Origin: Minisyncoccota bacterium
GTDB lineage: Bacteria; Patescibacteriota; Minisyncoccia; Phycocordibacterales; UBA9973
Assembly: GCA_041663185.1 (NCBI GenBank)
Contig: JBAZQY010000002.1
Location: 74,629 to 138,628, forward strand
DNA length: 64,000 nucleotides
Reading direction: 5' to 3'
The notes beneath the pieces were generated by a model, which saw nothing but the letters and a program-made list of their open reading frames with translations, searched no databases and was not told where the DNA came from. Both the position numbers and the translations under genes were made by a program. Positions within the stretch are counted from its first letter, which is position 1, and every line of letters starts with the position of its first letter. Of the stretch, positions 15,757-37,058 are shown piece by piece.

Positions 15757-15830
15757 GTGGACCCTACAGGACTCGAACCTGCCACCCCCTCATTGCAAAT
15801 GAGGTGCTCTACCAGATGAGCTAAGGGCCC
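15757..15830 (-). tRNA. tRNA-Ala (anticodon UGC)
   Basis: The reverse complement GGGCCCTTAGCTCATCTGGTAGAGCACCTCATTTGCAATGAGG...GGTTCGAGTCCTGTAGGGTCCA forms a cloverleaf. The G3:U70 pair and a TTTGCAA anticodon loop are present. Confidence 0.85.
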
Positions 15831-17815: not shown

Positions 17816-17945
17816 AATATATGAGTGTTATGCGAAATAGAATTTATGCTAAAGTAGGGAATAGGAAAGAGATGCTCGAAAAAAGATCGAGATTTTAGAA
17901 ACGAAATGAAAAGGCAAACATACGAAATATAATAAGTTATAATTT

Positions 17946-18782
17946 ATGAAACCAAAAACACTGCAGATGCTTGTTCCAGGAGGAAATCCTAATGGAATGA
18001 AAATAATAGAACTTCCTGGATGGTCTGGCAAGTGTTTTTTATTACCTCGTCAAAATTTAAAAGAATTAAAGGATTCCTCTGATGTAAACCAACCGGGTCT
18101 TTATATTTTATTTGGTTCGAATGAAGAGTCAGGAGATGATCTTGCTTATATAGGTGAATCAGAAAATTTTTACAGTCGTATTACAAATCATGATGCAAAT
18201 AAAGACTTTTGGAATACAGCTGTTATTTTTACCGGGGAATTAAATAAAGCCCATGTTAAATATTTAGAGTATAAGGCTACGGCATTAGCCCATAAAGTAA
18301 ATCGTATGACGGTTCAAAACAAAGTACAACCTCCAGAAAATTCATTATCATATTTTGATAAGATTTCAGCCGAAGAATATTTTGAAAATGTACAATTTAT
18401 TTTAGAAGCATTGGGGTACCAACTTTTTGAAGCTGTTGCTGAGTCAATTTCTGACACTAAGCTTTATTATTTAAAAGCTGAAGGAGCAGACGCTAAAGCT
18501 CAATTATTAGAAGACGGTAGTCTTAATATTCTTAAAGGATCTACTGCAAGAATTAGAGAAACTGAAGCATTTTTTGGTTGGTCAAAGGCTGCAAGAGAAA
18601 AGTTTCTTAAGGATGGTATTTTAATTGAGAAGGGAGACGGGATATCTTATTTATTTACAAAAGATGTTTTATTTAAAAGTCCTACTGCTGCTGCCGCTAC
18701 GACCACAGGAAGACCAATCAATGGGTGGACATCATGGAAAGATGAATCTGGTAATACGTTAGATGAAAATTTAAGGAAATAG
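17946..18782 (+). CDS. GIY-YIG nuclease family protein with a C-terminal DUF4357-like domain. This family is commonly associated with R-M and defence loci.
   Basis: GLYILFGSNEESGDDLAYIGESENFYSRITNH is the GIY-YIG motif. The C-terminal block reads GSTARIRETEAFFGWSKAAREKFLKDGILIEKGDGISYLF. It lies directly upstream of hsdM. Confidence 0.65.
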   Translation: MKPKTLQMLVPGGNPNGMKIIELPGWSGKCFLLPRQNLKELKDSSDVNQPGLYILFGSNEESGDDLAYIGESENFYSRITNHDANKDFWNTAVIFTGELNKAHVKYLEYKATALAHKVNRMTVQNKVQPPENSLSYFDKISAEEYFENVQFILEALGYQLFEAVAESISDTKLYYLKAEGADAKAQLLEDGSLNILKGSTARIRETEAFFGWSKAAREKFLKDGILIEKGDGISYLFTKDVLFKSPTAAAATTTGRPINGWTSWKDESGNTLDENLRK

Positions 18783-18983
18783 GCTTTAATTAGTCTTTCT
18801 CAAATTAAAAGTTGAGCTGTTAATCTTTAATTTGACTTTTATATATTAAAGGTATAGTTTCATCTGCCATATTCTACCAGAATATAGAGTAAAAGGTATT
18901 TAAGCCCTAACCTATGAAAAATAGTCAATTTTGTTGTTCCTAGGTTAGCAACATAGGAAGAGTTAGGAAAATAGTCAAATAGC

Positions 18984-19012
18984 TTGACTTTTAGATTCAA
19001 AGGGTATATACT
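18984..19012 (+). promoter_or_regulatory. Candidate promoter for hsdM. TTGACT-17 nt-TATACT ends 7 nt before the ATG, giving a leaderless configuration.
   Basis: ttgact at 18984-18989 and tatact at 19007-19012, with the ATG at 19020. The direct repeat aaaatagtcaa occurs twice upstream, at 18912 and 18968. Confidence 0.45.
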
Positions 19013-19019
19013 ACCCTAT

Positions 19020-20717
19020 ATGACAAATAATTATTCAATAAAACAAGTAGCTAAAAGATTGGGGGTTCATGAAGATACTCTTCGCAATTGGGAAGATCAA
19101 GGGCTTATTAAACCTTTGCGTGTAGGCAAAAGACAAGATAGAAAATATACAGATGAAATTATAAATACAATAATTGAGAAAGGGTTAGCTCATCCAATTT
19201 TGAGTTTAGATAAAGACGCTCCAGAGAAAAAAGAAAAAATGAAATTATCAGAGCTTCAATCATTTTTATGGAAGAGTGCTGATATTCTCCGCGGGAAAAT
19301 TGATAGTGGCGATTATAAATCATATATTTTCGGACTTCTCTTTTATAAGAGAATAAGCGATATGTGGGATGAAGAGTATGAAGATATTTTAGCAAAATTT
19401 CACGATGAAGAACTTGCCAATGCCGACTACAACCACAAATTCCAAGTTCCGAAAGATTGCCGTTGGTTAGAAGTTCAGAAAGAAGCTACAAATATTGGCT
19501 CAAAGCTCAACGATGTTTTTGATAAATTAACTACTGCAAACACTCCCAAGCTTGATAAGATTTTCAACAACTTAAATTTCGCTGATAAAGACCGCTTCCC
19601 CAACGAAACAACTCAACGCCTCATAAACCATTTCTCAAAATATAATTTTGGTAATACTTACATCAATTCGGATATTCTTGGTGATGCATATGAATATCTT
19701 ATAAAACAATTTGCTTCAGATGCCGGGAAAAAGGGAGGCGAGTTCTACACTCCACGAGAAATTGAAAGAGTAATAATAAAAATAATAAAACCTGAAGCCA
19801 AAAGTCATGTAAATGACCCAACATGTGGCTCGGGAGGATTTTTATTGGAAGCTTATCATTATGTTCGTGAAAAATTTGGAGATAAGGAAGCTCGCAAGAT
19901 GTATTTATCGGGGCAAGAAATAAATATTGGAACTTATGCAATTTCAAAAATAAATATGTTCTTACACGGGCTTGAAAGTACCGACATCCGCCGAGGAGAT
20001 ACATTAGCAGATCCTCAATTTTTAGATAAAGCTGGGAAAATCCAAACATTTTCTCATGTAGTTGCAAATTTTCCGTACTCAATCAAAGAGTGGGAATGGG
20101 AAACTTTTACTCATGACAAATATGGTCGCACAGATGGGTATGAACTTCCTCCACAGAAAAATGCTGACTACGCTTTTATTCTCCACATAATAAAATCTTT
20201 GAACGAAAACGGCAGAGCTGGGATTGTTGTCCCGCATGGTGTGCTTTTCAAATCTGATACTTCGGGGAGAATTCGTGAGCAAGTTTTAAAGAATGACTTA
20301 ATAGAGGCAATTATCGCAATGCCTGCAAAGCTTTTCTCGGGAGTTGGTATTCCTGTGGCTCTTGTGATATTAAACAAGGCAAAAGCACCAAATCATAAAA
20401 ACAAAATTCTTTTCATAGATGCCGAAAGTGATTATCAAGAAGGGAAAAATCAAAATTCGCTACGAAATCAAGACATAGAAAAAATTGTTTCAGCTTTTGA
20501 TAATTGGAGAGATGTTGATAAATATGCTCGTGTTATAAATATGAAAGAAATAGAAGAAAACGATTATAATTTAAATGTTCGTAGATATATTGACTCATCG
20601 GAAGTAGAAGAAGTTATTGATGTTTCCGTTGTGTGGAAAGAATTAAAACAAACAGAAAAAGAGCGTGATGAAATCAATAAAAAAGTCGAGGGATATTTAA
20701 AAGAATTAATATACTAA
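19020..20717 (+). CDS. hsdM: Type I restriction-modification system methyltransferase subunit HsdM, with an N-terminal MerR/excisionase-like HTH.
   Basis: IKQVAKRLGVHEDTLRNWEDQGLI is the HTH. The HsdM N-terminal domain (LWKSADILRG) is present. The SAM-binding motif is DPTCGSGGFL and the N6-adenine motif is VVANFPYS. Confidence 0.9.
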   Translation: MTNNYSIKQVAKRLGVHEDTLRNWEDQGLIKPLRVGKRQDRKYTDEIINTIIEKGLAHPILSLDKDAPEKKEKMKLSELQSFLWKSADILRGKIDSGDYKSYIFGLLFYKRISDMWDEEYEDILAKFHDEELANADYNHKFQVPKDCRWLEVQKEATNIGSKLNDVFDKLTTANTPKLDKIFNNLNFADKDRFPNETTQRLINHFSKYNFGNTYINSDILGDAYEYLIKQFASDAGKKGGEFYTPREIERVIIKIIKPEAKSHVNDPTCGSGGFLLEAYHYVREKFGDKEARKMYLSGQEINIGTYAISKINMFLHGLESTDIRRGDTLADPQFLDKAGKIQTFSHVVANFPYSIKEWEWETFTHDKYGRTDGYELPPQKNADYAFILHIIKSLNENGRAGIVVPHGVLFKSDTSGRIREQVLKNDLIEAIIAMPAKLFSGVGIPVALVILNKAKAPNHKNKILFIDAESDYQEGKNQNSLRNQDIEKIVSAFDNWRDVDKYARVINMKEIEENDYNLNVRRYIDSSEVEEVIDVSVVWKELKQTEKERDEINKKVEGYLKELIY

Positions 20718-20721
20718 ATAT

Positions 20722-21543
20722 ATGGATATAACACCATTTGAGAAAATAAAAAAGGTTACAGATTATGGAGCAGAGTATTGGATAGCCAGAGAGTTAATGG
20801 AGGTTCTTGGTTACGATACATGGAGAAGATTTGAAGATGCTATCCAAAGAGCGATAGAATCATGTAATAACGCAGGAGGAGATGCAAGTCAAGAGTTTTT
20901 GCCGGCTCCGGCAAAAACCCAAGAGGTAGGTGGAAGACCCGGAAAAGACTATATTTTATCAAGATATGCTTGTTATCTTATAGCACAAAATGGAGATCCA
21001 TCAAAAGAGCAAATAGCTAATGCTCAGACTTATTTTGCAATACAAGCAAGAAAACAAGAAGTATATGAGACAACAATTGAGGATAAAAAGAGAGTAATGT
21101 TGCGAGAAGAAATGAAAAAGCATAATTTAGAACTTGCTTCAGCTGCTAAACAAGCCGGTGTTATAGATCCATACGATTATGCGATTTTTCAAAATTTTGG
21201 TTATAAGGGTTTATATGGGAATCTTGGTGTGCAAGATATTCACAGGAAGAAAGGTCTCAAAAAATCTCAGAAAATATTAGACCATATGGGGAGTGAAGAG
21301 TTAGCTGCAAATCTTTTTAGAACTACTCAAGCAGAGGCAAAATTACGACGAGAGAATAGAAAAGATAAAGGCAGAGCAAATGAATTACATAGAGAAGTAG
21401 GTGCTATGGTTAGAAAAACAATAAAAGAAATAGGAGGTACTATGCCAGAAAATTTACCCGTTGCTGAAGGGATAAATAAAACTGTTCTTAAATTGAAAAA
21501 AGGTACGATAGATAAAAAATTACTTAAACCTAATAAAAAATAA
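20722..21543 (+). CDS. DinD-like (DNA-damage-inducible protein D family) / Bro-N-domain protein, embedded between hsdM and hsdS.
   Basis: PFEKIKKVTDYGAEYWIARELMEVLGYDTWRRFEDAIQRAIESC resembles the Bro-N/DinD N-terminal signature. At 273 aa it is about the same length as E. coli DinD. This is recalled from memory and not searched. Confidence 0.5.
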   Translation: MDITPFEKIKKVTDYGAEYWIARELMEVLGYDTWRRFEDAIQRAIESCNNAGGDASQEFLPAPAKTQEVGGRPGKDYILSRYACYLIAQNGDPSKEQIANAQTYFAIQARKQEVYETTIEDKKRVMLREEMKKHNLELASAAKQAGVIDPYDYAIFQNFGYKGLYGNLGVQDIHRKKGLKKSQKILDHMGSEELAANLFRTTQAEAKLRRENRKDKGRANELHREVGAMVRKTIKEIGGTMPENLPVAEGINKTVLKLKKGTIDKKLLKPNKK

Positions 21544-21547
21544 ATTT

Positions 21548-22651
21548 ATGAGTATTTGGGATATTTTTAGAACAAATGAAGCAGAAATTATAAACAATAA
21601 AAAAATTGGGGTAATTTATGTTGCTGACTTTCCACAAGATACTGGTAAATATGTTTCTATTGCCGAGGGTAGTGTTAATAATTCAGATTTAGATATAAAA
21701 ATTTCAACTCGTATTCATTTACGCATTACTTATATAACACATTCAGAGAAGATTAGTGGAGTTGAGATTGCAAAAGTAGATGGGGATAAAATTGAGAAAA
21801 TTCATTTTTCTACTTTAGATTTTGAACGCATCCTACAGTTACTAAGTTTATTTTCTGAATTAGATTTAAAAGCAGTAGTCAATAAAACGGTGATGTTTGA
21901 TGAGTCTATAATAGGTGACTCTAAAGAAGTTTCAAGATTTTTAACATTAATAGCTTCAGACCCAGAAGGCAAAGAGAAATTAGGAGAAGTTGCTAAAAAT
22001 TATGGGCTTATTAAGGTTGGTGATATAGATAACATAGTTCAGAAAAAAGAAGCAGTTGCTCTTTTTGAGAAAATTTTAAATGATCAAAGGGAATTTACAA
22101 AATATAAGAGTGAGCTTGGAGTAGGAAAAGACGAAGAGGTTTGGCAGAAATTCTTTTCTCAAAATTCATGGATTCTAGGTTCTGATTTTGTTGAAATTCT
22201 TGATGAGAGACGGCTAGATGTTGAAAATATAACAGATTACCTTTTAAAATCATTTGATGGTTTTGTGGATATTATTGAATTAAAACTTCCTTCTGTTCAA
22301 TTTTGGACAACAGAGAATATTCCAAGAAGTGAATTAACTTCGGCAACTATGCAGTGTAATAGATATATTTTACAAACAGAAAGAAAAATAAATGATTTAG
22401 AGTTTAATAAGAAAATTCAAAATACTCCAATTGTAAAACCAAGGATTACTTTGATATATGGACGCTCTAATTCATGGGGTGACAACGAGAAAGAGGCGTA
22501 TAGAGTTTTAAATTCAAGTTATTATAATCTAAATATTATTTCTTATGACCATTTACTTGAACGAGCAAAAAGATTAATAGGGATTATTAGTACAAAAACA
22601 ATTATTGTTGAAAACGAAGATGAAATAAACACAGAAGATATCCCTTTTTAA
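21548..22651 (+). CDS. DUF4263 (Shedu SduA-like) PD-(D/E)xK nuclease-domain protein; candidate anti-phage effector nested in the type I R-M operon.
   Basis: The C-terminal domain reads FDGFVDIIELKLP...MQCNRYIL...PRITLIYGRS...YNLNIISYDHLLERAK. This is the D...ExK + QxxxY pattern and the terminal ...SYD.LL pattern typical of DUF4263. The N-terminal roughly 220 aa are of unknown fold. Confidence 0.5.
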   Translation: MSIWDIFRTNEAEIINNKKIGVIYVADFPQDTGKYVSIAEGSVNNSDLDIKISTRIHLRITYITHSEKISGVEIAKVDGDKIEKIHFSTLDFERILQLLSLFSELDLKAVVNKTVMFDESIIGDSKEVSRFLTLIASDPEGKEKLGEVAKNYGLIKVGDIDNIVQKKEAVALFEKILNDQREFTKYKSELGVGKDEEVWQKFFSQNSWILGSDFVEILDERRLDVENITDYLLKSFDGFVDIIELKLPSVQFWTTENIPRSELTSATMQCNRYILQTERKINDLEFNKKIQNTPIVKPRITLIYGRSNSWGDNEKEAYRVLNSSYYNLNIISYDHLLERAKRLIGIISTKTIIVENEDEINTEDIPF

Positions 22652-22653
22652 TT

Positions 22654-23841
22654 ATGAAAACTAACCAATTACAAAAGAAGATTCCAAATGGGTGGATGGA
22701 GGATAACATAGGAAAATATGGGTCTTGTATTCGTGGAGTAAGTTACTCTCCACGAGATCTTAGGGATACAGAAGACGAATCCTCTATCTCTTTATTGCGG
22801 TCTAATAATATTAAGGATGATAAATTGAATCTTTCAGACGTTCAAATTGTTTCAAAAACAAGAGTTTCAGATAATCAGATTCTTAAAAAGGGTGATATTT
22901 TTGTATGTATGTCCAACGGTTCTAAATCTTTAGTTGGTAAAAACGTTTTTATAAAAGATGATGCAGAATATACTATTGGAGCTTTTTGTTCTTTGTTTCA
23001 TTTGAATTCAAACAAGGTTGTTCCTTTGTTTATTAAGCAGTTGTTTCTCTCAGATAGTTATTTAAGACAAATTCAAGATAGTTTAGCTGGAACCAGTATA
23101 AATAATTTAAAAAATTCTCATATTGAAGATTTAAAATTTTTATTTCCTCCAAAACCAGAGCAAGAAAAAATTGCGGAGATTTTAAGTTCAGTTGATGAAG
23201 ATATAGAAAAAACTGAAAAAGTTATTAAAAAAACTGAAAAATTAAAAAATGGATTGTTTAAAAGTCTTTTAAATGAATGTAAAAATACAAAAGAAGTAAA
23301 TTTTTCTGAATTAGTTAAATTAAGAAATGAAAAATTCAGAGGATTAGATAATAAAAAATATGTATCTTTAGAGCACATAGAACAAGGCACTGGCAGGTTG
23401 CTGGGATTTGGAGATTCCGAGGAAACAAAAAGCATAAATTCTGTATTTAGCATAAATAATATTCTTTTTGGGAAATTACGCCCTTACTTACGAAAATATT
23501 GGAAGGCTGATTTTGAGGGTGTTTGTACTGGAGAAATATTGGTATTTGAGCCAATATTAGAGAGTGATATTGATTTCATTTTTCAATTAATACAAACTGA
23601 TGAATTTATCAATCATTCTGTCTCTGAATCTTTTGGAACTAAAATGCCAAGGACTGATTGGAATATAATTTCAAACTTTCAAATAAAAGTTCCGCCTCAA
23701 AAAGAAAGAGAAAAAATAGGAGAAATTCTTTCAGCTGTCGATGAAAAGATTTTGGTCAATAAAAAATTAAAAGAAAAACTTACTCAATTAAAGAAGGGAT
23801 TAATGTCGGATCTCTTGAGTGGAGAAGTAAGAACAATATAG
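22654..23841 (+). CDS. hsdS: Type I R-M specificity subunit HsdS (two target-recognition domains).
   Basis: The N-terminus KIPNGWMEDNIGKY and the conserved central and C-terminal coiled-coil repeats (EQEKIAEILSSVDEDIEKTEK / EREKIGEILSAVDEKILVNKK) are present. There are two variable target-recognition domains. Confidence 0.85.
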   Translation: MKTNQLQKKIPNGWMEDNIGKYGSCIRGVSYSPRDLRDTEDESSISLLRSNNIKDDKLNLSDVQIVSKTRVSDNQILKKGDIFVCMSNGSKSLVGKNVFIKDDAEYTIGAFCSLFHLNSNKVVPLFIKQLFLSDSYLRQIQDSLAGTSINNLKNSHIEDLKFLFPPKPEQEKIAEILSSVDEDIEKTEKVIKKTEKLKNGLFKSLLNECKNTKEVNFSELVKLRNEKFRGLDNKKYVSLEHIEQGTGRLLGFGDSEETKSINSVFSINNILFGKLRPYLRKYWKADFEGVCTGEILVFEPILESDIDFIFQLIQTDEFINHSVSESFGTKMPRTDWNIISNFQIKVPPQKEREKIGEILSAVDEKILVNKKLKEKLTQLKKGLMSDLLSGEVRTI

Positions 23842-23845
23842 TAAT

Positions 23846-24664
23846 ATGGATGATTTTAATAAAAGATGGGGAATAATAGAAGAGATAGACTACAAAGAAG
23901 AATTTGAAAAATTTAAAATAAGAGTTTTAACTGTTTTTCGTGAAGTTGATAGTCATGTTGAAGAAGAAGTTGTTGAAAACTTTTGTAATAAGTTGGGTAT
24001 TCCAGTTAATTGGACTTATGATGACTTTAATTATAGAAATTATGGAGAAAATATAATAAATATATTGACTTCAATTAAGGAAGAAAAAAAATTTTATTTT
24101 GCATTAGAATTATTATTAAATTTACCCATTCAAACTTTAATTGGTTACTCTCATGATGAAAAATATAGTAGAAATATATTAGTTAAAAAGTTTTTTGAGA
24201 TTTTAAATTATTCGAAAGTCAACCTTAAAGTTATTATAGAAGATAAAAAAGTAGTTTTGTATCCAGCAGGCGATGAAATGTTAGATGTAGAATTGGTTGA
24301 TAATACTTTAAATTTTTTAAATGCAGAAGCCAAAAAACATTTTGTAGAAGCATTAAAATTTTATCAAGATAAAAAATATATTAAATCTGCTGAAGGTCTT
24401 AGAAGGTCATTAGAAGAATTTTTAAGAAATAGATTGAAAAATACAAAAGGATTGAATGCTAACATTACTGAATTGCAGGCAAAACTAAAAAAAGACGGAC
24501 GCGATCCTCAAGTTAGGAATATAATTCAATCAACTTTTGGATGCCTAGACCAATATTTTAATGAGAATAGTAAACATAATGATGGCGATATTGATGATTC
24601 TGAAAATGAATTTTTAATATATCAGACAGGATTATTAATGAGGTATATAAATAGCAATATATGA
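23846..24664 (+). CDS. Hypothetical 272-aa protein embedded between hsdS and hsdR. It is a candidate accessory defence or abortive-infection-type gene.
   Basis: No family is recognised. It is acidic and alpha-helical, with a possible Rx4H at residues 32-37 (REVDSH). The position inside a type I R-M operon is typical for passenger anti-phage genes. Confidence 0.4.
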   Translation: MDDFNKRWGIIEEIDYKEEFEKFKIRVLTVFREVDSHVEEEVVENFCNKLGIPVNWTYDDFNYRNYGENIINILTSIKEEKKFYFALELLLNLPIQTLIGYSHDEKYSRNILVKKFFEILNYSKVNLKVIIEDKKVVLYPAGDEMLDVELVDNTLNFLNAEAKKHFVEALKFYQDKKYIKSAEGLRRSLEEFLRNRLKNTKGLNANITELQAKLKKDGRDPQVRNIIQSTFGCLDQYFNENSKHNDGDIDDSENEFLIYQTGLLMRYINSNI

Positions 24665-27579
24665 AATTCAACGAACAATACACAGTAGAAAATTACATTA
24701 TTAAGTTTCTTAAAGAGACACTAGGTTTTGAATATATAAAGCCAGAGATTTTTGAGAAGTTTCGCTCTTATGAGAATGAATATATTGCAGAGCCACTTTT
24801 ACAAGATGCCATCCGCAAGATTAATGGCAAGGTAGAAAGTGGTGAAATGAGAAATATCATTCAGATAATTCGTGGAGTTGAGACGAATAAAGAATTTCTG
24901 AATTTATTGCGAAATGGTATTGATTTAATTGATTCAGAAACTCGCAGGACAAAAAATTATCAAATTGTGGATTTTGATATTGTAGACAACAATCACTTTG
25001 TCGTTACCAATCAATTTTATTTCGCTGGAAATGCTGAGAATATCAGACCTGATATTATTCTTTTCTTGAATGGAATACCTATTGTTGATATTGAAGCCAA
25101 AAGTCCTACAGCTTCAGAGCAAGTTGATTATGCTATCGCTATCGGGCAGATAAAACGCTATGAAAGAAACGCTAAAAGCCTTTTTATCCCCAACTGCTTC
25201 AATATAGCTACAGATGGACTTAAGACTGTTTATGGGGCTACATATTCGGGAGAACAATTCTTTTCAGAATGGAAAGATAAGGATTTAGAAGAACAATATG
25301 GTGGAAAGTTAGAAAGCACACTTGTTGCACTTTTAGCGGGGCGAAATTTACTTGATATAATTCAAAATTTTATGGTTTTTGAAGATACTGACGAGGGGTC
25401 AATAAAGAAAATAGCTAGATATCAACAGCTTCGCGCTACCAATAAAATTTATGAACGAGTAAAAGAAGGAAAGCAAAAAAGAGGGCTTGTCTGGCATACT
25501 CAAGGATCTGGAAAAAGTTTGACGATGTTTTTCACAGCGTGGAAATTACGCTATGAAAAACTTTTAGAAAATCCTAAAATTTTTGTGCTTGTAGATAGAG
25601 TAGATTTGGATGACCAGATTTTTGAAACCTTTATAAACTGCGGTGGAGAAAATGTTGAAAGAGTGACATCAAGAGAAGAGTTGTTAAAAGTTATTGAATC
25701 AAAGGAGGCTGGGATTTTCGTTTCTACGGTTCATAAATTTGATGAAAATGTGAAAGATATAAAAAATGAAGCTTCAAATATCATTGTGCTAATTGATGAA
25801 GCACACCGTACTCAATATGGAAGTTTAGGTATCTATTTAAGGAGTTCTTTGCCAAATGCTAGTATGATAGGTTTTACAGGCACTCCAATATCTAAAACGC
25901 ATGAAGAATTTGGGCTTTTGACTTCTGGTAATCCCGAAAGGTATCTTGATTATTATTCCATCAAGCAAGCGATAGAAGATAACGCGACAGTTCCTGTTGT
26001 TTATGAAGCAAGGTTGTCAAAGTTTTCTATAGACGAAAAAGAAATTGATGCTCAATTTGATTTAGCAACAAGTGATTTATCAATAGAACAAAAAGATTTA
26101 CTTTCTAAAAAATACGGCAGAAAAGAAGCTTTTACAAAACTTGATAAAAGAATGGAAGCTATCGCTAGAGATATTTATGAGCATTTCAATACTTATGTCG
26201 CACCAGCTGGGTTTAAGGCACAAGTTGTTTGTTATGACAGAGAGACAACAGCTAAATATAAAGAAATTTTTGACCAAATAATGCCGAAAGAATATTCTGA
26301 AGTTATTTATTCCCCGGGCGAAGTTAATACTGATTCTCCAGAACTCAGCAAATACAATAAAACTAAAAGTGAAATAAAAGAGGCTATTAAGAAATTTAAG
26401 GACAAAAATCATCAACTTAAATTCTTACTTGTCTGCGATATGCTTTTGACTGGATTTGATGCACCTGTTGAGCAAGCTATGTATTTAGATAAGCCACTAC
26501 AACATCATAATCTTTTGCAAGCTATTGCTCGTACAAACAGAACCTATCCGCAAAAAGCGAATGGGTTGATAATTGATTATTATGGAATTACTAAAAACTT
26601 GAAAGACGCCTTGGATTTTGATGAAAGTGAAATTGCTGATTCTATGATAGATATGGATACTATTAAAAAAGATTTTGAATCTAGTTTTGAAAAAGTAAGC
26701 AAAATCTTTCACGGTATAAATACCGAAGACCCAAGAATGGAAAATTTAAGGAAATGTTTTGATATTTTCAGGGATAATACACAAAAGCAAGAAGATTTTA
26801 AAGAGGAATGGAATAAACTAAAAATCTTTTACGAAATAATTTCTCCAGACCCATACCTCTTACCATTTACTAGACAAGTAGAATGGTTTGCTTGTTTCTA
26901 TATTGCATTTAAAAAAGAATTTGAAGCCGACACTCGTGATGTCCACGCTCTTCTTTTTGAATATGGTTCAAAATTAAAAGCCATTATTCAATCTGAAGTG
27001 GATTTCGAAGGAATTACAAAAAATTATACCCCTATTCGGTTAGATCAGTTTACAGAACTTGAAAAATACAAAGACCCTGATGAAGATAAGGTTCGTATGC
27101 TTGAGAGAGCTTTAAATTATGAAATTTCTATAAATTTCGATGCTAGCCCTGTGTTTAAAAAATTCTCTGAAAGATTGACTCATATCAAGACAGAGTTTGA
27201 GAAACGTCAGGTGGCATTGCAAGAAACATTAAAAAAACTGCATGATTTAGCTGATGATATTAAAAAAGTTGATGATGAAGCCAAAGATTTAGGTCTTGAT
27301 ATGAAGCAATTCGCTCTATATTCTCTCTCAAAAGAAGAAGGATATATTAAAGAGGCTGAAAAGGGTGTTCTAAAGCAATTTTCAATTGATTTAGGTGAGT
27401 ATTTGGATGATTTACTTCCAGAGGGTTGGCAAGATACTCTTCGCAGAGAAGATTTTTTGAAAGATATAAAAAGACAAATTCAGCAAATGCTTCTACAAGA
27501 ATATAGAGATAATTTAGTTGTTCGTGATTTTCAAAAATATCTAAACAGGCTTGTTGATGTTATTTTAAAAAAGTTTTAA
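24661..27579 (+). CDS. hsdR: Type I restriction enzyme R subunit HsdR (nuclease plus SF2 helicase).
   Basis: The N-terminal PD-(D/E)xK region (VDIEAKSP) is present. The helicase motifs are I (HTQGSGKSLTM), II (VLIDEAHRTQ) and VI (QAIARTNR). It is 972 aa. Confidence 0.9.
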   Translation: MKFNEQYTVENYIIKFLKETLGFEYIKPEIFEKFRSYENEYIAEPLLQDAIRKINGKVESGEMRNIIQIIRGVETNKEFLNLLRNGIDLIDSETRRTKNYQIVDFDIVDNNHFVVTNQFYFAGNAENIRPDIILFLNGIPIVDIEAKSPTASEQVDYAIAIGQIKRYERNAKSLFIPNCFNIATDGLKTVYGATYSGEQFFSEWKDKDLEEQYGGKLESTLVALLAGRNLLDIIQNFMVFEDTDEGSIKKIARYQQLRATNKIYERVKEGKQKRGLVWHTQGSGKSLTMFFTAWKLRYEKLLENPKIFVLVDRVDLDDQIFETFINCGGENVERVTSREELLKVIESKEAGIFVSTVHKFDENVKDIKNEASNIIVLIDEAHRTQYGSLGIYLRSSLPNASMIGFTGTPISKTHEEFGLLTSGNPERYLDYYSIKQAIEDNATVPVVYEARLSKFSIDEKEIDAQFDLATSDLSIEQKDLLSKKYGRKEAFTKLDKRMEAIARDIYEHFNTYVAPAGFKAQVVCYDRETTAKYKEIFDQIMPKEYSEVIYSPGEVNTDSPELSKYNKTKSEIKEAIKKFKDKNHQLKFLLVCDMLLTGFDAPVEQAMYLDKPLQHHNLLQAIARTNRTYPQKANGLIIDYYGITKNLKDALDFDESEIADSMIDMDTIKKDFESSFEKVSKIFHGINTEDPRMENLRKCFDIFRDNTQKQEDFKEEWNKLKIFYEIISPDPYLLPFTRQVEWFACFYIAFKKEFEADTRDVHALLFEYGSKLKAIIQSEVDFEGITKNYTPIRLDQFTELEKYKDPDEDKVRMLERALNYEISINFDASPVFKKFSERLTHIKTEFEKRQVALQETLKKLHDLADDIKKVDDEAKDLGLDMKQFALYSLSKEEGYIKEAEKGVLKQFSIDLGEYLDDLLPEGWQDTLRREDFLKDIKRQIQQMLLQEYRDNLVVRDFQKYLNRLVDVILKKF

Positions 27580-27581
27580 AT

Positions 27582-28142
27582 ATGAAAAGAAAACTTGTAA
27601 TAAAAAATCAAAATATTACTGTTGAAATAAGGAAAAGCAAGAAAGCGAAGAGAATGAGAATAGCTGTCTATTGTGATGGCTCAGTTGTCGCTGTGCATCC
27701 AGAAAATATTAGCTTTTTGAAAATTTTATCAGTTATTGAAGATAAAATTAATTGGATAAAAGAAAAAGTTGATTTTTTTAGTTCGAAGCAAGATATTGCT
27801 GTTTTAAAAGGAACGAAAAGAGAATATTTAAAAAATAAAGAAGAAGCTCTTTTATTAGTTAAAAGTAAAGTTGAGTATTTTAATAATTTTTATAAATTTC
27901 ATTACAATAAAATTTATATTAAAAATCAGAAAACACGCTGGGGCAGTTGTTCGGTTAAAAAAAATTTAAATTTTAATTATAAAATTATATTTTTACCTAA
28001 AGAATTGCAGGATTATCTAATCGTGCATGAACTATGTCATTTGAAAGAATTTAACCATTCAAAAAAATTCTGGGACTTAGTGAGATTAAGAATTCCAAAT
28101 CTTAATCAAGTGAGCAAAATGTTAAGAAAGCATTTAAGATAA
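27582..28142 (+). CDS. M48/YgjP-family (DUF45) zinc metallopeptidase-like protein, commonly encoded next to hsdR.
   Basis: The HExxH motif is HELCHLKEFNHSKKFW. The size and position downstream of hsdR fit. Confidence 0.7.
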   Translation: MKRKLVIKNQNITVEIRKSKKAKRMRIAVYCDGSVVAVHPENISFLKILSVIEDKINWIKEKVDFFSSKQDIAVLKGTKREYLKNKEEALLLVKSKVEYFNNFYKFHYNKIYIKNQKTRWGSCSVKKNLNFNYKIIFLPKELQDYLIVHELCHLKEFNHSKKFWDLVRLRIPNLNQVSKMLRKHLR

Positions 28143-28159
28143 TTTTTTATATTAATTTT

Positions 28160-28687
28160 ATGAATTCACATTCAATATTAACTACTGATGGAGAAACAAC
28201 TATTTCTTTAGCATCTGGGAAAGTTGTTAATTTGCCTATTTGTCATCCACAATTTTCTTTATGGAGGGAACCAGTAAATAATTTTAATTATGGCGGAAAG
28301 CCATTGATTAATCATAATAATGAACCCATATTTGCGGAATTAGCGATATTGCGTATATTACAAGCAGATGGTTGGGAGGGTGTATGGGTTGAAACATATG
28401 GGGGAACTCATTTTCTTCAATCTATGCCAAAAGAATGGAAATTAAAATCAGAACATGTTTCAATTCCTAAAGACAAGGAAGAATTATTAAAAAAAATATG
28501 GAAAACAGCAAAAACAACTGCATGTTTTGATATTTTTGCGTGGAAGGGGAAAGACTTTATTTTTTGTGAAGCAAAAACTAAAGGAAAAGATAAACTCACC
28601 AACGGGCAGATTAAGTTTATTGAAGGAGCCCTGTTCTGTGGAATATTGCCTGAATCATTATTAATAGTGGAGTGGGAAGGTAATTAA
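28160..28687 (+). CDS. Hypothetical protein with a PD-(D/E)xK-like signature (possible small nuclease).
   Basis: FDIFAWKGKDFIFCEAKTKG gives D...ExK spacing. No further family can be assigned. Confidence 0.3.
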   Translation: MNSHSILTTDGETTISLASGKVVNLPICHPQFSLWREPVNNFNYGGKPLINHNNEPIFAELAILRILQADGWEGVWVETYGGTHFLQSMPKEWKLKSEHVSIPKDKEELLKKIWKTAKTTACFDIFAWKGKDFIFCEAKTKGKDKLTNGQIKFIEGALFCGILPESLLIVEWEGN

Positions 28688-28693
28688 ATAAGA

Positions 28694-28716
28694 TTAGCAA
28701 GGACAGTCCTTGCTAA
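28694..28716. repeat. Palindromic repeat TTAGCAAGGAC-AGT-CCTTGCTAA. It belongs to a four-copy hairpin family (28.7-29.9 kb).
   Basis: It is a perfect inverted repeat. It is related to the copies at 29041, 29643 and 29842. Confidence 0.6.
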
Positions 28717-29026: not shown

Positions 29027-29040
29027 TTGTGAGAAAATTA

Positions 29041-29069
29041 GGACTAGCAAGAACAGTTCTTGCTAGTCC
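29041..29069. repeat. Palindromic repeat GGACTAGCAAGAAC-AGT-TCTTGCTAGTCC.
   Basis: It is a perfect 13-bp inverted repeat. It overlaps the 3' end of the minus-strand kinase-like gene. Confidence 0.6.
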
Positions 29070-29581
29070 TTTAGTAATTTCTCAATATTTAATTTTCTGG
29101 GACTGTTTGTTATGACAACCCTTTTATCTTTTATAGATTCTAATATGGCAAACATTTTCTTTCTATGACTTCTATTCCAATTTAATATCCACTTTAAGAA
29201 TTTATAATCAACTGTTTCTTTTTTGTCACTAGAAGTTCCATGTCTTTTTTCCAATTTCAAGCTAACCCTAATTGCTCTCTTTAAAACATTAAATAAATGT
29301 AAACGAGTGGGCATATCAACAAAAATTATAAGATCAGACCACTTTATTCTTGCTTCTAAGACAGAAGAATAATTTCCATCTACAACGCCAATCTCTTTTG
29401 AGAGAAATTCATTTTTACAAATATTTAACCATTCACTTTTTTCTTTCATTGACCAATCTGAGTTCAAAAGCAAATTATCTAGATGATAAATAGGATAACC
29501 TGTATATATGCTAATTCTATTAGCAAGAGTAGATTTACCTGAACCACTACCACCTAGGACTATTATCCTTTTGTATTTCAT
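29063..29581 (-). CDS. P-loop NTPase / nucleotide kinase-like protein (topology-modulation FlaR / AAA-kinase family).
   Basis: RIIVLGGSGSGKSTLA is the Walker A motif. The small size of about 170 aa fits. Confidence 0.55.
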   Translation of the reverse strand: MKYKRIIVLGGSGSGKSTLANRISIYTGYPIYHLDNLLLNSDWSMKEKSEWLNICKNEFLSKEIGVVDGNYSSVLEARIKWSDLIIFVDMPTRLHLFNVLKRAIRVSLKLEKRHGTSSDKKETVDYKFLKWILNWNRSHRKKMFAILESIKDKRVVITNSPRKLNIEKLLKD

Positions 29582-35552: not shown

Positions 35553-37058
35553 ATGGCTTTGAACAAACCTAACAAGATTCAGATAATTAAATATGCTCCT
35601 CCGCCTCCTGATCTGCCGACTCTTGGTAAATCAGATCCGAGCGAGGTAGTATTTATCGGACGCACCAACTACGTGGCGGCTCTCGAAGAGAAAAAATTTG
35701 TCTTTGGAATCAAGCGCATCGACCGTCGCCGTCATATGTACATTATTGGTAAGTCTGGAGTCGGTAAATCAAAACTTTTGGAATTAATGATTCGCCAAGA
35801 TATCGCCTATGGCCAAGGAGTCTGTGTGATTGACCCACACGGAGAGTTGATAGATGATATTTTAAACTTCATGCCGAAAGAAAGAATCGAAGATGTCTGT
35901 ATTATTGACCCAGGGGATATTGATTATCCATCATCATTTAATCCACTTTCAAATATTGATCCAGCCTTCAAACATCAACTCACTCAAGGGTTGATAGAAG
36001 TTTTGCGTAAACAATTCGGAGCAAACTGGACGCCACGTCTGGAGCACGTTTTTCGTTTTACAACTTTGGCGCTACTGGATTATCCTCACGCGACAATGCG
36101 TGGAATGATTTCGATGCTGACCGACCGTAACTATCGTCAAAAGGTTGTTGAGTATATCGAAGATGACATGGTCAAAAGATTCTGGGCAATTGAATTCGCC
36201 GACTGGTCTGAAAAGTTCGATACCGATGCTATTATTCCGCTTGTTAATAAATTAGGGCAGTTTCTTTCTGATCCAATGCTTCGAAACATTTTCGGACAAA
36301 AAGAAAATAAAATTGATTTGGAAAAATTGATGAATGAACAAAAAATTCTTTTGATTAATTTGTCTAAAGGAAAAATAGGGGAGGAGAATTCTTCTTTCTT
36401 TGGAGCAATGTTCTTGACCAAAATCAAACAAGCTGGAATGGCGCGAGCAAAACTTGAACCACAAGATAGACATGACTTTTATCTGTATGTCGACGAGTTC
36501 CATAATATTGTGACAGATACCTTCGAAAATATTCTCTCCGAAGCGCGTAAATATGGAATAAATCTTATCGTAGCACATCAATACGTCGGCCAACTTTTGC
36601 CAAAAGTTGAGCAAGCTGTTCTTGGAAATACTGGTTCGATTATTACATTCCGTGTGGGAGGTGATGATGCCGTCAAACTCAAATCTGACTTTGCACCGAT
36701 TTTTGAAGTTAAAGATATGATTAACTTAGGGGTTGGAGAATTTTTTATAAAAATGACAATTGATGGAGAAAGCTATGACCCATTCTCAGCCGAGACACTT
36801 CGAGTTCTGCCAGCGACTCATCCATCGTATCGCCAAGAGGCAATTGATGCATCTCGTCGCAAATACGCAATCTTGGCCGGCGAGGCCCAGAGATTGATTG
36901 CGGAAGAAGAAGCAACCATCATTCGTTCAGCACAAGAAAAAGCCGCAATTGTTGGAAATAAAAAGCCAGGAGAAGAAGACAAAGCAGAAGGAGAAGAAAA
37001 AACAAACACCAAAGGTGAATCTCCAAAAGAAGAAAAGGGCGGAGAACCACTAATATAA
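35553..37058 (+). CDS. TraD/VirD4/TrwB-like (type IV coupling protein-like) P-loop ATPase with an acidic, K/E-rich C-terminal tail.
   Basis: HMYIIGKSGVGKSKLLELMI is the Walker A motif. VIDPHGEL, YLYVDEFHN (Walker B) and AHQYVGQL follow. It is paralogous to the 43513 gene. Confidence 0.55.
   Translation: MALNKPNKIQIIKYAPPPPDLPTLGKSDPSEVVFIGRTNYVAALEEKKFVFGIKRIDRRRHMYIIGKSGVGKSKLLELMIRQDIAYGQGVCVIDPHGELIDDILNFMPKERIEDVCIIDPGDIDYPSSFNPLSNIDPAFKHQLTQGLIEVLRKQFGANWTPRLEHVFRFTTLALLDYPHATMRGMISMLTDRNYRQKVVEYIEDDMVKRFWAIEFADWSEKFDTDAIIPLVNKLGQFLSDPMLRNIFGQKENKIDLEKLMNEQKILLINLSKGKIGEENSSFFGAMFLTKIKQAGMARAKLEPQDRHDFYLYVDEFHNIVTDTFENILSEARKYGINLIVAHQYVGQLLPKVEQAVLGNTGSIITFRVGGDDAVKLKSDFAPIFEVKDMINLGVGEFFIKMTIDGESYDPFSAETLRVLPATHPSYRQEAIDASRRKYAILAGEAQRLIAEEEATIIRSAQEKAAIVGNKKPGEEDKAEGEEKTNTKGESPKEEKGGEPLI

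Follow-up and report, generated by a model that had tools for sequence, protein, structure and literature searches.

Type I restriction-modification (R-M) operons that carry additional genes between their own subunits have already been described. In the EcoprrI-PrrC locus of E. coli, ordered hsdM-hsdS-prrC-hsdR, a HEPN-fold effector gene is placed between hsdS and hsdR and layered defense is delivered from a single transcript (PMC3710099). The linkage of HEPN proteins to R-M is a recognized defense theme, and HEPN families that have the histidine but lack the arginine of the Rx4-6H motif are described (PMC3710099). For TgvAB of Vibrio cholerae VPI-2, experiments have verified a second defense system within a Type I operon (PMC11411939). 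The PDC models come from Payne et al. 2024 (10.1101/2024.01.29.577857), who derived them from genes lying inside Type I R-M, BREX and DISARM loci; PDC-S13, PDC-S14 and PDC-S32 owe their candidate status solely to genomic association. For the Shedu nucleases, Gu et al. reported 602 of 5,499 genes (~11%) within R-M systems of all types, Type I included.

Here we analyzed a window of 64,000 nucleotides from an uncultured Ca. Paceibacterota (CPR) MAG. Judged by its domain content, the Type I R-M operon in this window is complete, comprising MerR-HTH–HsdM, HsdS, HsdR and a YgjP-like peptidase. Three already-catalogued defense or candidate defense genes are nested in it: DinD and the Shedu nuclease SduA at the hsdM/hsdS junction and a 272-aa HEPN-fold protein at the hsdS/hsdR junction. 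The locus shares with EcoprrI-PrrC both the HEPN-fold gene between hsdS and hsdR and the apparent layering of defense on one transcript. It differs from the TgvAB locus, which carries a GmrSD-like Type IV system of two proteins, in that two of its junctions hold three single-gene modules unrelated to one another. We read the ~10.7 kb region as a defense island in which independently mobile single-gene defense modules are nested at the gene junctions of an intact Type I R-M operon, and assign this reading a probability of about 0.8. The original prediction of a Type I operon with embedded passengers is borne out by domain matches and ORF packing. Its claim that the layout is undescribed does not hold, since PrrC, TgvAB, the genes of Payne et al. 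and the 602 R-M-embedded Shedu genes are already known, and all four flagged proteins match existing PADLOC models. The DinD, GIY-YIG/DUF4357 and 272-aa proteins match PDC-S13, PDC-S14 and PDC-S32, respectively, and combine, as PDC members do, an HMM match with a place inside or next to a Type I R-M, BREX or DISARM locus, here Type I.

All nine ORFs lie on the + strand at the coordinates first predicted (Table 1). From hsdM to the peptidase the genes are separated by 4, 4, 2, 4, -4 (overlap) and 2 nt, followed by 17 nt to the last gene, and no terminator-like site was found on the + strand between 19 and 28.7 kb. The proposed gene order and tight packing therefore stand from hsdM onward, not for the GIY-YIG gene, which forms a transcription unit by itself, has its own promoter-like site (17906-17933) and precedes the probable start of hsdM by ~237 nt. 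Its GIY-YIG domain matched Pfam at 24.1 bits (cutoff 22.6, 4.4e-5). In a survey of ~90 loci, labeled by L-numbers, homologues of this gene come after hsdR in L012 (61% identity) and L023. The GC content is 0.27-0.32 over 21-29 kb compared with 0.35-0.41 in the flanks, which supports horizontal acquisition of the island. A second, related copy of the hairpin behind the last gene is found at 29040-29070.

Table 1 Features of the Type I R-M locus and the evidence used for their assignment.
Feature	Coordinates	Strand	Evidence or remark
GIY-YIG + DUF4357/RAMA protein, PADLOC candidate PDC-S14	17946..18782	+	DUF4357 3.4e-17, PDC-S14 4.6e-86
hsdM with N-terminal MerR-type HTH	18984..20717	+	N6_Mtase PF02384 1.2e-103, HsdM_N PF12161 1e-23, MerR_1 3e-11
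DinD, Bro-N domain protein, PADLOC candidate PDC-S13	20722..21543	+	Bro-N 7.7e-10, PDC-S13 1.5e-103
Shedu nuclease SduA, 367 aa	21548..22651	+	SduA_C 1e-17, PADLOC SduA 4.5e-65
SduA tail ISTKTIIVENEDEINTEDIPF: variable acidic linker, then SSB-Ct-like tip EDIPF-COOH	22588..22648	+	pLDDT, tip logo
hsdS, two target-recognition domains	22654..23841	+	Methylase_S 3.9e-20, two stretches
272-aa two-domain protein, PDC-S32-related	23846..24664	+	overlaps hsdR start by 4 nt
hsdR restriction/translocase subunit	24661..27579	+	HSDR_N 2.3e-33, SWI2_SNF2 1.9e-71, TIGR00348 1.9e-161
YgjP-like (M48-type, HExxH) metallopeptidase	27582..28142	+	PF01863 2.5e-35
175-aa protein, CPR-wide family	28160..28687	+	no significant family match
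Perfect palindromic hairpin, 11-bp stem	28694..28716	.	7 nt past last stop codon

The three subunits display the domains that define a Type I enzyme. HsdM joins HsdM_N to an N6-adenine methyltransferase and matches TIGR00497 at 263 bits (cutoff 242.75), both halves of HsdS are matched by PADLOC Specificity_I models (1.5e-59), and HsdR combines an N-terminal nuclease with an SF2 translocase and additionally matches T1R_D3-like and T1RH-like_C. Methylation and restriction activity are predicted from these domains. A promoter-like TTGACT-17-TATACT (18984-19012) lies ahead of hsdM, whose true start is more likely the ATG at 19020, and the MerR-HsdM fusion is also present in L093 and L097. A YgjP-like gene recurs downstream of hsdR in L001, L004, L048, L049, L052, L053 and L097. 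The 175-aa protein had no match in Pfam or PDB searches; one of its 96 homologues is annotated as PF08774 VRR_NUC, and the protein is possibly VRR-NUC-like. Its gene is probably co-transcribed with the operon across the 17-nt gap, and the family is not Type I-specific, with homologues in unrelated contexts.

The 367-aa passenger had been identified correctly as a Shedu SduA. Its SduA_C (DUF4263) domain scores 65.2 bits against a Pfam gathering cutoff of 27, the SduA entries 8ti8/8ti9 in the PDB were matched at 5.7e-8, and all four PD-(D/E)xK motifs align with B. cereus SduA 8ti8 (E196, D230, E244/K246 and Q269 with E204, D249, E264/K266 and Q295). These residues are invariant across 35 homologues. 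Using Foldseek on the predicted structure we obtained B. cereus Shedu as the top 7 matches. The protein is composed of a beta-rich N-terminal domain (~1-105), a helical linker (~107-190), the DUF4263 nuclease (194-345) and an acidic C-terminal tail. In a low-confidence model this architecture resembles Type 1A Shedu of B. cereus (8ti8), with which it shares the nuclease core with motifs I-IV and apparently the order of N-terminal domain, linker and nuclease, at only ~20% sequence identity. Its secondary-structure elements come in an order that fits the sPC4/Whirly N-terminal domain plus helical linker of Type 1A. The model does not establish the Whirly-like fold for the N-terminal domain, which has a pLDDT of only ~46-64 and a weak Foldseek match to a Pur-alpha repeat (prob 0.92, E 0.17). 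This domain family is rare, with 38 cluster representatives. The region is nevertheless not unrecognized, as had been stated, for PADLOC model PDLC00392 spans residues 6-343.

SduA ends in ...NEDEINTEDIPF at its extreme C-terminus, behind a disordered linker (pLDDT below 50 for residues 348-367), which is where an SSB-Ct is placed. The final E-D-I-P-F is a near match to the SSB-Ct consensus D-D-D-[I/L]-P-F, with T at the third acidic position; the tip of E. coli SSB is MDFDDDIPF (PMC7145534). Within the SduA clade the tip logo reads [ED][DN][IL]PF and the tip codons show synonymous variation. A C-terminal [DEN][ILV]PF was present in 24/77 SduA proteins compared with 0/1410 other ORFs. The SduA of B. 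cereus has no such tip, and we found no paper in the Shedu literature that describes an SSB-like SduA ending. From its sequence, the tail appears to imitate the tip that SSB, the bacterial single-strand DNA-binding protein, uses for docking. This is the one new detail of the locus, the nested arrangement being already known.

The 272-aa protein was originally left as unassigned. It has no Pfam match, but it consists of an alpha/beta N-terminal domain (residues 1-140) and a helical bundle with the HEPN fold (144-271), and it is related to PDC-S32. This match (8.5e-19) is partial, covering residues 109-269 only, and the family has its own N-terminal domain. Its 239 homologues are mostly from CPR bacteria. 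The E-x3-[KR] motif has an invariant E190, and among 75 sequences position 194 is an arginine in 66 and a lysine in 8. H244 is also invariant, while the arginine of the canonical Rx4-6H is not present (N239-x4-H244, motif N-E-N-S-K-H). RNase activity is uncertain because this arginine is missing. PrrC differs in having both this arginine and an N-terminal ABC-ATPase domain; no NTPase match was obtained for the 272-aa protein in Pfam.

The passengers might be functionally coupled to the Type I enzyme instead of acting autonomously, which we consider unlikely. If so, the R-M complex would keep the HEPN protein latent and free it upon phage inhibition, as for a PrrC-type guard, and cleavage and translocation by HsdR would yield the DNA ends or single strands on which SduA acts; studied Shedu senses free DNA ends. 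The genomic distribution speaks to this in both directions. Of the loci with SduA clade members, 21/21 at >=70% identity and 19/25 at 45-70% have the gene inside a Type I operon, far above the ~11% of Gu et al. for all R-M types, and this near-exclusive embedding suggests more than random hot-spot insertion. In two HsdS families, the hsdS start repeatedly lies 1-4 nt behind the SduA stop. Likewise, the HEPN gene occupies the PrrC position (PMC3710099): in the window as well as the three independent loci L093, L095 and L097 it directly precedes hsdR and overlaps it by 4 nt. On the other hand, the SduA partners span 11 HsdM and 9 HsdR clusters at 50% identity, making a specific protein-protein interface less likely, and among relatives below 45% identity with the same N-terminal domain 0/9 are in Type I loci. 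The HEPN family is Type I-embedded in four of six independent contexts; the other two (L098/L099 and L100/L101) are without any Type I genes, where a PrrC-type guard would be expected essentially only in Type I operons. The HEPN protein also lacks an NTPase domain like that of PrrC.

The same survey shows that the passengers move independently of the backbone, as the defense-island reading has it. SduA proteins that are 73-89% identical occur in loci whose HsdM are only 24-37% identical. Within the Type I family of the window, L093 carries different cargo (M-AAA_15-S-251-HEPN-82-206-R) and L097 has neither DinD nor SduA (M-S-HEPN-R-YgjP), so both are dispensable to the R-M system. HEPN genes outside Type I loci and dinD genes standing alone on plasmids likewise mark these two as separable from the operon. 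On these observations the passengers are not housekeeping genes.

The 273-aa passenger is a true DinD/Bro-N protein, as predicted, matching the NCBIfam equivalog NF008573 well above its cutoff (1.8e-98, 329.4 bits, cutoff 242) over residues 4-260, with ~52% identity to E. coli DinD. The E. coli gene is a stand-alone SOS gene, whereas the window dinD has no promoter of its own and begins 4 nt after hsdM. E. coli DinD is a RecA modulator that inhibits RecA filaments, the sole experimentally known DinD activity and not one in defense. DinD had been proposed to form a pair with SduA, and one could imagine a dedicated two-gene system in which DinD acts as the sensor for the nuclease or regulates it. 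Two-component Shedu systems do exist, as KELShedu shows (PMC12577705), dinD and sduA are neighbors 4 nt apart in the window, as in L012, and lie close to each other in L001 and L025, and the L100 island holds both a Bro-N and an SduA_C protein. The pair is not conserved, however: DinD is beside SduA in 3/21 non-redundant loci of the >=70% clade and in 0/25 of the 45-70% clade, and in those three its identities to the window protein (55, 60 and 34.5%) do not track those of SduA (81, 77 and 75%). Moreover, an extra ORF separates the two in L001, and dinD is found alone on plasmids and in E. coli. SduA has no fixed neighbors besides the hsd genes, which fits a single-gene system, and we regard a dedicated pair as highly improbable.

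Least probable of all is that the passengers are not defense genes but regulators or repair factors for the R-M system, for example with DinD alleviating restriction once DNA is damaged, or mobile-element remnants: Bro-N domains are common in phage regulators, E. coli DinD is SOS-induced and the PDC families lack experimental support, but SduA belongs to an experimentally validated defense family and has intact catalytic motifs, R-M-linked HEPN proteins are an established defense theme, no integrase, transposase or phage structural gene was found between 15 and 32 kb, and L097 does without DinD and SduA.

For the defense island, we infer the enzymatic activities, triggers and anti-phage effects of the parts as follows. 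The Type I enzyme would methylate host DNA and cut unmodified incoming DNA. SduA may be an autoinhibited PD-(D/E)xK nuclease whose N-terminal sensor frees its activity on phage DNA structures; by analogy with studied Shedu proteins, free ends or single-stranded DNA could be the triggers. A second line would come from the HEPN protein as a latent effector of abortive infection, of the RNase type, and DinD, a putative Bro-N DNA-binding protein, may disturb phage recombination or replication. The hsdM promoter is the most likely origin of the transcript, which would run through MerR-HsdM, DinD, SduA, HsdS, the HEPN protein, HsdR, the YgjP-like peptidase and the 175-aa gene. On such a single transcript all layers would therefore be co-expressed and co-inherited.

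All nine open reading frames of the original prediction were recovered in place on the forward strand, and domain scans confirmed and sharpened every assignment. The nine had been proposed to form one tightly packed Type I restriction-modification (R-M) operon. This holds from hsdM through the peptidase gene, where successive gaps measure 4, 4, 2, 4, -4 and 2 nt, followed by 17 nt before the gene for the 175-aa protein; no terminator-like sites were found on the forward strand inside the block. It does not hold for the GIY-YIG gene, a separate unit about 237 nt upstream of ATG 19020 with a promoter-like site of its own. This ATG (MTNNYSIKQVAKRLG...), rather than position 18984, is most likely the start of hsdM, and a promoter-like TTGACT-17-TATACT lies directly before it. 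The region upstream of hsdM also contains direct and inverted repeats that may serve as an autoregulatory operator. The MerR-type helix-turn-helix (HTH) domain at the N-terminus of HsdM is likewise present in two comparison loci from other genomes, L093 and L097.

Features of the Type I R-M operon and its surroundings
Feature	Length	Position	Strand	Match or detail
tRNA-Ala		15757-15830		nearest tRNA
GIY-YIG + DUF4357 protein	278 aa	17946-18782	+	PADLOC PDC-S14, 4.6e-86
Region upstream of hsdM		18783-19060
15-nt inverted repeat		18907-18948
Exact AAAATAGTCAA repeats (two)		18918, 18968
Promoter-like site		18984-19012
MerR-type HTH fused to HsdM	577 aa	18984-20717	+	N6_Mtase, 1.2e-103
DinD	273 aa	20722-21543	+	NCBIfam equivalog, 329 bits (cutoff 242); Bro-N, 7.7e-10; PDC-S13, 1.5e-103
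SduA	367 aa	21548-22651	+	Pfam SduA_C, 1e-17; PADLOC SduA, 4.5e-65
SduA tail		22588-22648		residues 347-367
SduA/hsdS junction		22640-22670
HsdS	395 aa	22654-23841	+	two recognition domains
272-aa protein	272 aa	23846-24664	+	Pfam, none; PDC-S32, 8.5e-19 over residues 109-269
HsdR	972 aa	24661-27579	+	TIGR00348, 1.9e-161
YgjP-like HExxH metallopeptidase	186 aa	27582-28142	+	2.5e-35
175-aa protein	175 aa	28160-28687	+	no significant match
Palindromic hairpins (two)		28694-28716, 29040-29070		core TAGCAAGNACNGTNCTTGCTA
TraG/VirD4-like protein		35553-37058		type IV secretion coupling protein

The GC content is 0.27-0.32 across 21-29 kb versus 0.35-0.41 in the flanks, where the genes are ordinary, with an epimerase, tRNA-Ala and an S49 peptidase on the upstream side and a P-loop protein and a DUF333/Germane protein on the downstream side. 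Two unrelated genes lie between the tRNA and the island, and no integrase or recombinase flanks it. About 320 nt of AT-rich, non-coding sequence separate the end of the operon from the convergent P-loop gene, and this spacer is bracketed by two related, perfect palindromic hairpins. Further downstream, the TraG/VirD4-like gene is followed by several small ORFs without assignment in a low-GC stretch (37-43 kb); TrbC/VirB4-like genes adjoin the Type I-Shedu operon in four comparison loci (L008-L011). A Candidatus Paceibacterota MAG encodes proteins with 100% identity to SduA and the 272-aa protein, and nearly all related loci stem from Patescibacteria/CPR genomes and metagenomes.

The layout had been described as one that could not be matched to any described system. 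However, defence genes nested within Type I operons are an established phenomenon, so this statement is not supported. The classic case is PrrC in EcoprrI (PMC3710099), and a recent one, shown by experiment, is TgvAB in Vibrio cholerae VPI-2 (PMC11411939). Payne et al. 2024 used embedding in Type I R-M, BREX and DISARM loci as a discovery method (10.1101/2024.01.29.577857); the phage defence candidates (PDC) of PADLOC are its product, and three proteins of the window match them. Among 5,499 Shedu genes, Gu et al. counted 602 that lie within R-M systems, including those of Type I. The observation behind the original prediction stands, and its interpretation finds partial support. The locus is a rich but otherwise unexceptional instance of an arrangement already known, and a single lead, the tail of SduA, deserves testing.

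SduA is a Shedu nuclease. A profile built from 35 homologues and searched against the PDB matched the solved Bacillus cereus and Escherichia coli Shedu structures (5.7e-8 to 4.3e-7), and residues E196, D230, E244/K246 and Q269, all invariant in the homologue alignment, align with the published motifs I-IV (E204, D249, E264/K266, Q295). The AlphaFold2 model from 35 close homologues was poor (pLDDT 58), and we used it solely for secondary structure and for matching the Shedu core. Its best seven Foldseek matches were B. cereus Shedu chains (E 3e-6 to 2e-4), and the best non-Shedu match was a weak one to a Pur-alpha repeat (probability 0.92, E 0.17). In this low-confidence model, predicted β-strands (residues 23-87) are followed by a helix (92-102), further helices to about residue 190 and the nuclease domain. 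This order would fit, suggestively only, the Type 1A Shedu plan of an sPC4/Whirly domain, a helical linker and a nuclease (Gu et al.). The two Shedu proteins that have been studied are sensors of free ends or proposed binders of single-stranded nucleic acid. The N-terminal half, first taken as unrecognised, is not entirely so, as the PADLOC SduA model PDLC00392 spans residues 6-343. An exhaustive search with residues 1-165 returned just 38 cluster representatives among 1.84 billion, all carrying the region at the N-terminus and with full-length members of SduA size, which marks the domain as rare. No fusion to another effector was seen among the 38.

In order to determine whether the inserts are passengers, related hsd loci were checked for their absence. 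We retrieved 92 loci by SduA similarity alone, labelled their ORFs with iterated HMMs built from the window proteins and counted non-redundant loci as embedded when a Type I gene lay at most 3 genes away on the same strand. A Type I gene was near in 21/21 loci whose SduA is at least 70% identical to the window's and in 19/25 at 45-70%, several of the six exceptions being short contigs, but in 0/9 loci below 45% with the same N-terminal domain. SduA usually sits between hsdM and hsdS; the order hsdS|SduA|hsdR occurs in a 47-50% sub-clade and in L005. At 50% identity, its hsd partners separate into 11 clusters of HsdM and 9 of HsdR. The clade at ≥70% alone spans four HsdM families, and in L013 an SduA 89% identical to the window's adjoins an HsdM that is only 37% identical. 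Conversely, the window's own Type I family (HsdM 65-67%, HsdR 54-57% identical) carries different cargo elsewhere: L097 reads MerR-HsdM|HsdS|HEPN|HsdR|YgjP without DinD or SduA, and L093 holds an AAA_15 ATPase and three other small genes. This check, which the original prediction had suggested, thus favours true, mobile passengers, and we reject a housekeeping role on the survey and on L097. The YgjP-like peptidase gene is regularly found 3' of hsdR, and GIY-YIG/DUF4357 homologues take this position in L012 and L023.

As for a mobility signature, conserved cassette flanks around SduA were not found, the 5' side not being conserved. The stop codon of SduA, a gap of 1-4 nt and the start of hsdS form a junction that recurs in eight comparison loci (L001, L004, L007, L008, L012, L013, L022 and L027) and spans two different HsdS N-terminal types, which suggests either that SduA and the hsdS 5' end recombine as a unit or that translational coupling is selected.

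DinD had been regarded as paired with SduA, yet of 21 close loci just 3 (L001, L012, L025) have DinD flanking SduA, with an extra ORF between the two in L001, and no locus of the 45-70% clade does. Nor do the proteins track each other: DinD identities to the window are 55, 60 and 34.5%, versus 81, 77 and 75% for SduA in the same loci. On this co-occurrence and these discordant identities we reject an obligate pair. In E. coli and on plasmids, dinD homologues of about 50% identity stand alone, with toxin-antitoxin, integrase or partition genes as neighbours; all three annotated plasmid examples inspected were stand-alone, none inside a Type I locus. The window DinD is also matched over model positions 6-259 (4.4e-82) by PADLOC PDLC03083, a 717-position 'Specificity_I' model, implying that DinD-HsdS fusion proteins exist.

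The window SduA ends in ...NEDEINTEDIPF. Across the SduA clade, the last ~20 residues form a linker that is variable, net-acidic and modelled at low confidence; after it comes a conserved tip, whose logo is [E/D][D/N][I/L]-P-F-COOH. The tip is present in 17/20 complete SduA proteins at ≥70% identity to the window and in remoter branches with other N-terminal domains (L065, L066, L072-L075); linker and tip were also noted across L001-L027. The ending [DEN][ILV]PF was found in 24 of 77 unique complete SduA ORFs versus 0 of 1410 other ORFs in the same loci. Its codons differ synonymously (ATT/ATA/ATC, CCA/CCT/CCG, TTT/TTC), hence selection acts on the protein. By sequence, the tip resembles that of the E. 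coli single-strand DNA-binding protein SSB, MDFDDDIPF (PMC7145534). The two Shedu preprints mention neither SSB nor a C-terminal tail, and no paper in the literature searched joins both topics. We tentatively propose, at a probability of roughly 0.3, that this Type I-embedded Shedu clade bears a functional mimic of the SSB C-terminal tip (SSB-Ct), which may combine with a Whirly-like, single-strand-binding N-terminal domain. Such a tail could let the nuclease dock on SSB-binding proteins of host or phage, and so bring it to replication or recombination intermediates, or could be a bait for phage SSB-binding proteins. The SSB tip folds back onto the SSB DNA-binding domain; by analogy, the SduA tail could fold back on the nuclease's DNA-binding surface as an autoinhibitory pseudo-substrate. 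A tail-less SduA sub-clade (57-61% identity) usually has a translationally coupled gene for a 116-aa repeat protein downstream, which may be a partner in place of the tail. This protein, found directly after SduA in ten comparison loci (L034, L035, L037-L040, L042, L043, L045, L055), consists of five 'YDY..S.HISG'-like repeats and has no assigned family.

The 272-aa protein has 239 homologues, mostly in CPR bacteria and none with a Pfam domain; scans of 75 members gave noise only, apart from four marginal DUF4145 matches. Its AlphaFold model from 75 sequences is confident (pLDDT 86) and comprises an α/β domain (1-140) and a six-helix C-terminal bundle (144-271). Within N239-E-N-S-K-H, the invariant H244 is the histidine of the HEPN Rx4-6H motif, whose arginine is absent; the second HEPN motif, E-x3-[KR], is present (E190...R194), and R186, R187 and R224 are invariant. 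HEPN families with exactly such a motif deviation, and at least 16 HEPN clades tied to R-M systems, have been described (Anantharaman et al., PMC3710099). The guess that this protein is possibly Abi-like was therefore right at the level of the predicted fold. TipC2, the sole PDB profile match, was spurious and partly aligned to a His-tag. In three further independent loci the HEPN gene lies directly upstream of hsdR with the same 4-nt overlap. Elsewhere it accompanies an HTH/AAA_15 pair with hsd genes absent (L098), or, in L100, a DpnII-type Type II R-M island with another SduA_C protein and a Bro-N protein. This island (L100 1-9200, and L101) consists of KilA-N, Dam methyltransferase, DpnII and a second methyltransferase, followed by a 378-aa SduA_C protein, a 73-aa ORF, the HEPN homologue, DUF2726, the Bro-N protein and a PDDEXK_1 nuclease. 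All three passenger families of the window thus recur there, arranged differently.

For the 175-aa protein, neither PDB nor Pfam gave a match, and its family is found in unrelated contexts. The idea of a VRR-NUC nuclease has as its sole basis a precomputed VRR_NUC annotation on one homologue. In L105 (4400-6800), a homologue has an HNH protein on one side and a large serine recombinase on the other; a reverse transcriptase and a bAvd gene, of a diversity-generating retroelement, are close by.

The analysis shows gene identity, folds, catalytic residues, packing and mobility. With the activities and triggers that we infer, a single transcript would provide immunity in layers. The Type I enzyme would restrict unmodified DNA, while SduA would be an autoinhibited nuclease whose N-terminal sensor releases its activity on phage DNA structures. 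The HEPN protein is a putative latent RNase-type abortive-infection effector and the PDC-S14 protein a candidate GIY-YIG nuclease; as the E. coli relative of DinD is an inhibitor of RecA, DinD may interfere with recombination. The passengers might in addition be coupled to the Type I enzyme, the HEPN protein acting as a PrrC-like guard and DNA ends being handed to SduA; the near-exclusive Type I embedding of the SduA clade speaks for such coupling, and the diverse hsd partners and the HEPN contexts lacking Type I genes weaken the case.

The locus is a clean example of defence stacking in CPR/Patescibacteria, with R-M, Shedu, a HEPN effector and two candidates in one operon that we estimate at ~1% of a typical CPR genome. 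It supports the 'guilt-by-embedding' approach with independent metagenomic data, and HEPN is the first fold-level annotation for a PDC-S32-related family. The SSB-tip-like motif, if functional, ties a defence nuclease to the SSB interaction network; if true, SSB-tip mimicry would give Shedu a new principle of regulation or targeting and might explain the tight association with a DNA-translocating restriction enzyme. That this Shedu clade is nearly confined to Type I operons over many unrelated hsd backbones makes it worth asking whether there is mechanistic cooperation between Shedu and Type I enzymes.
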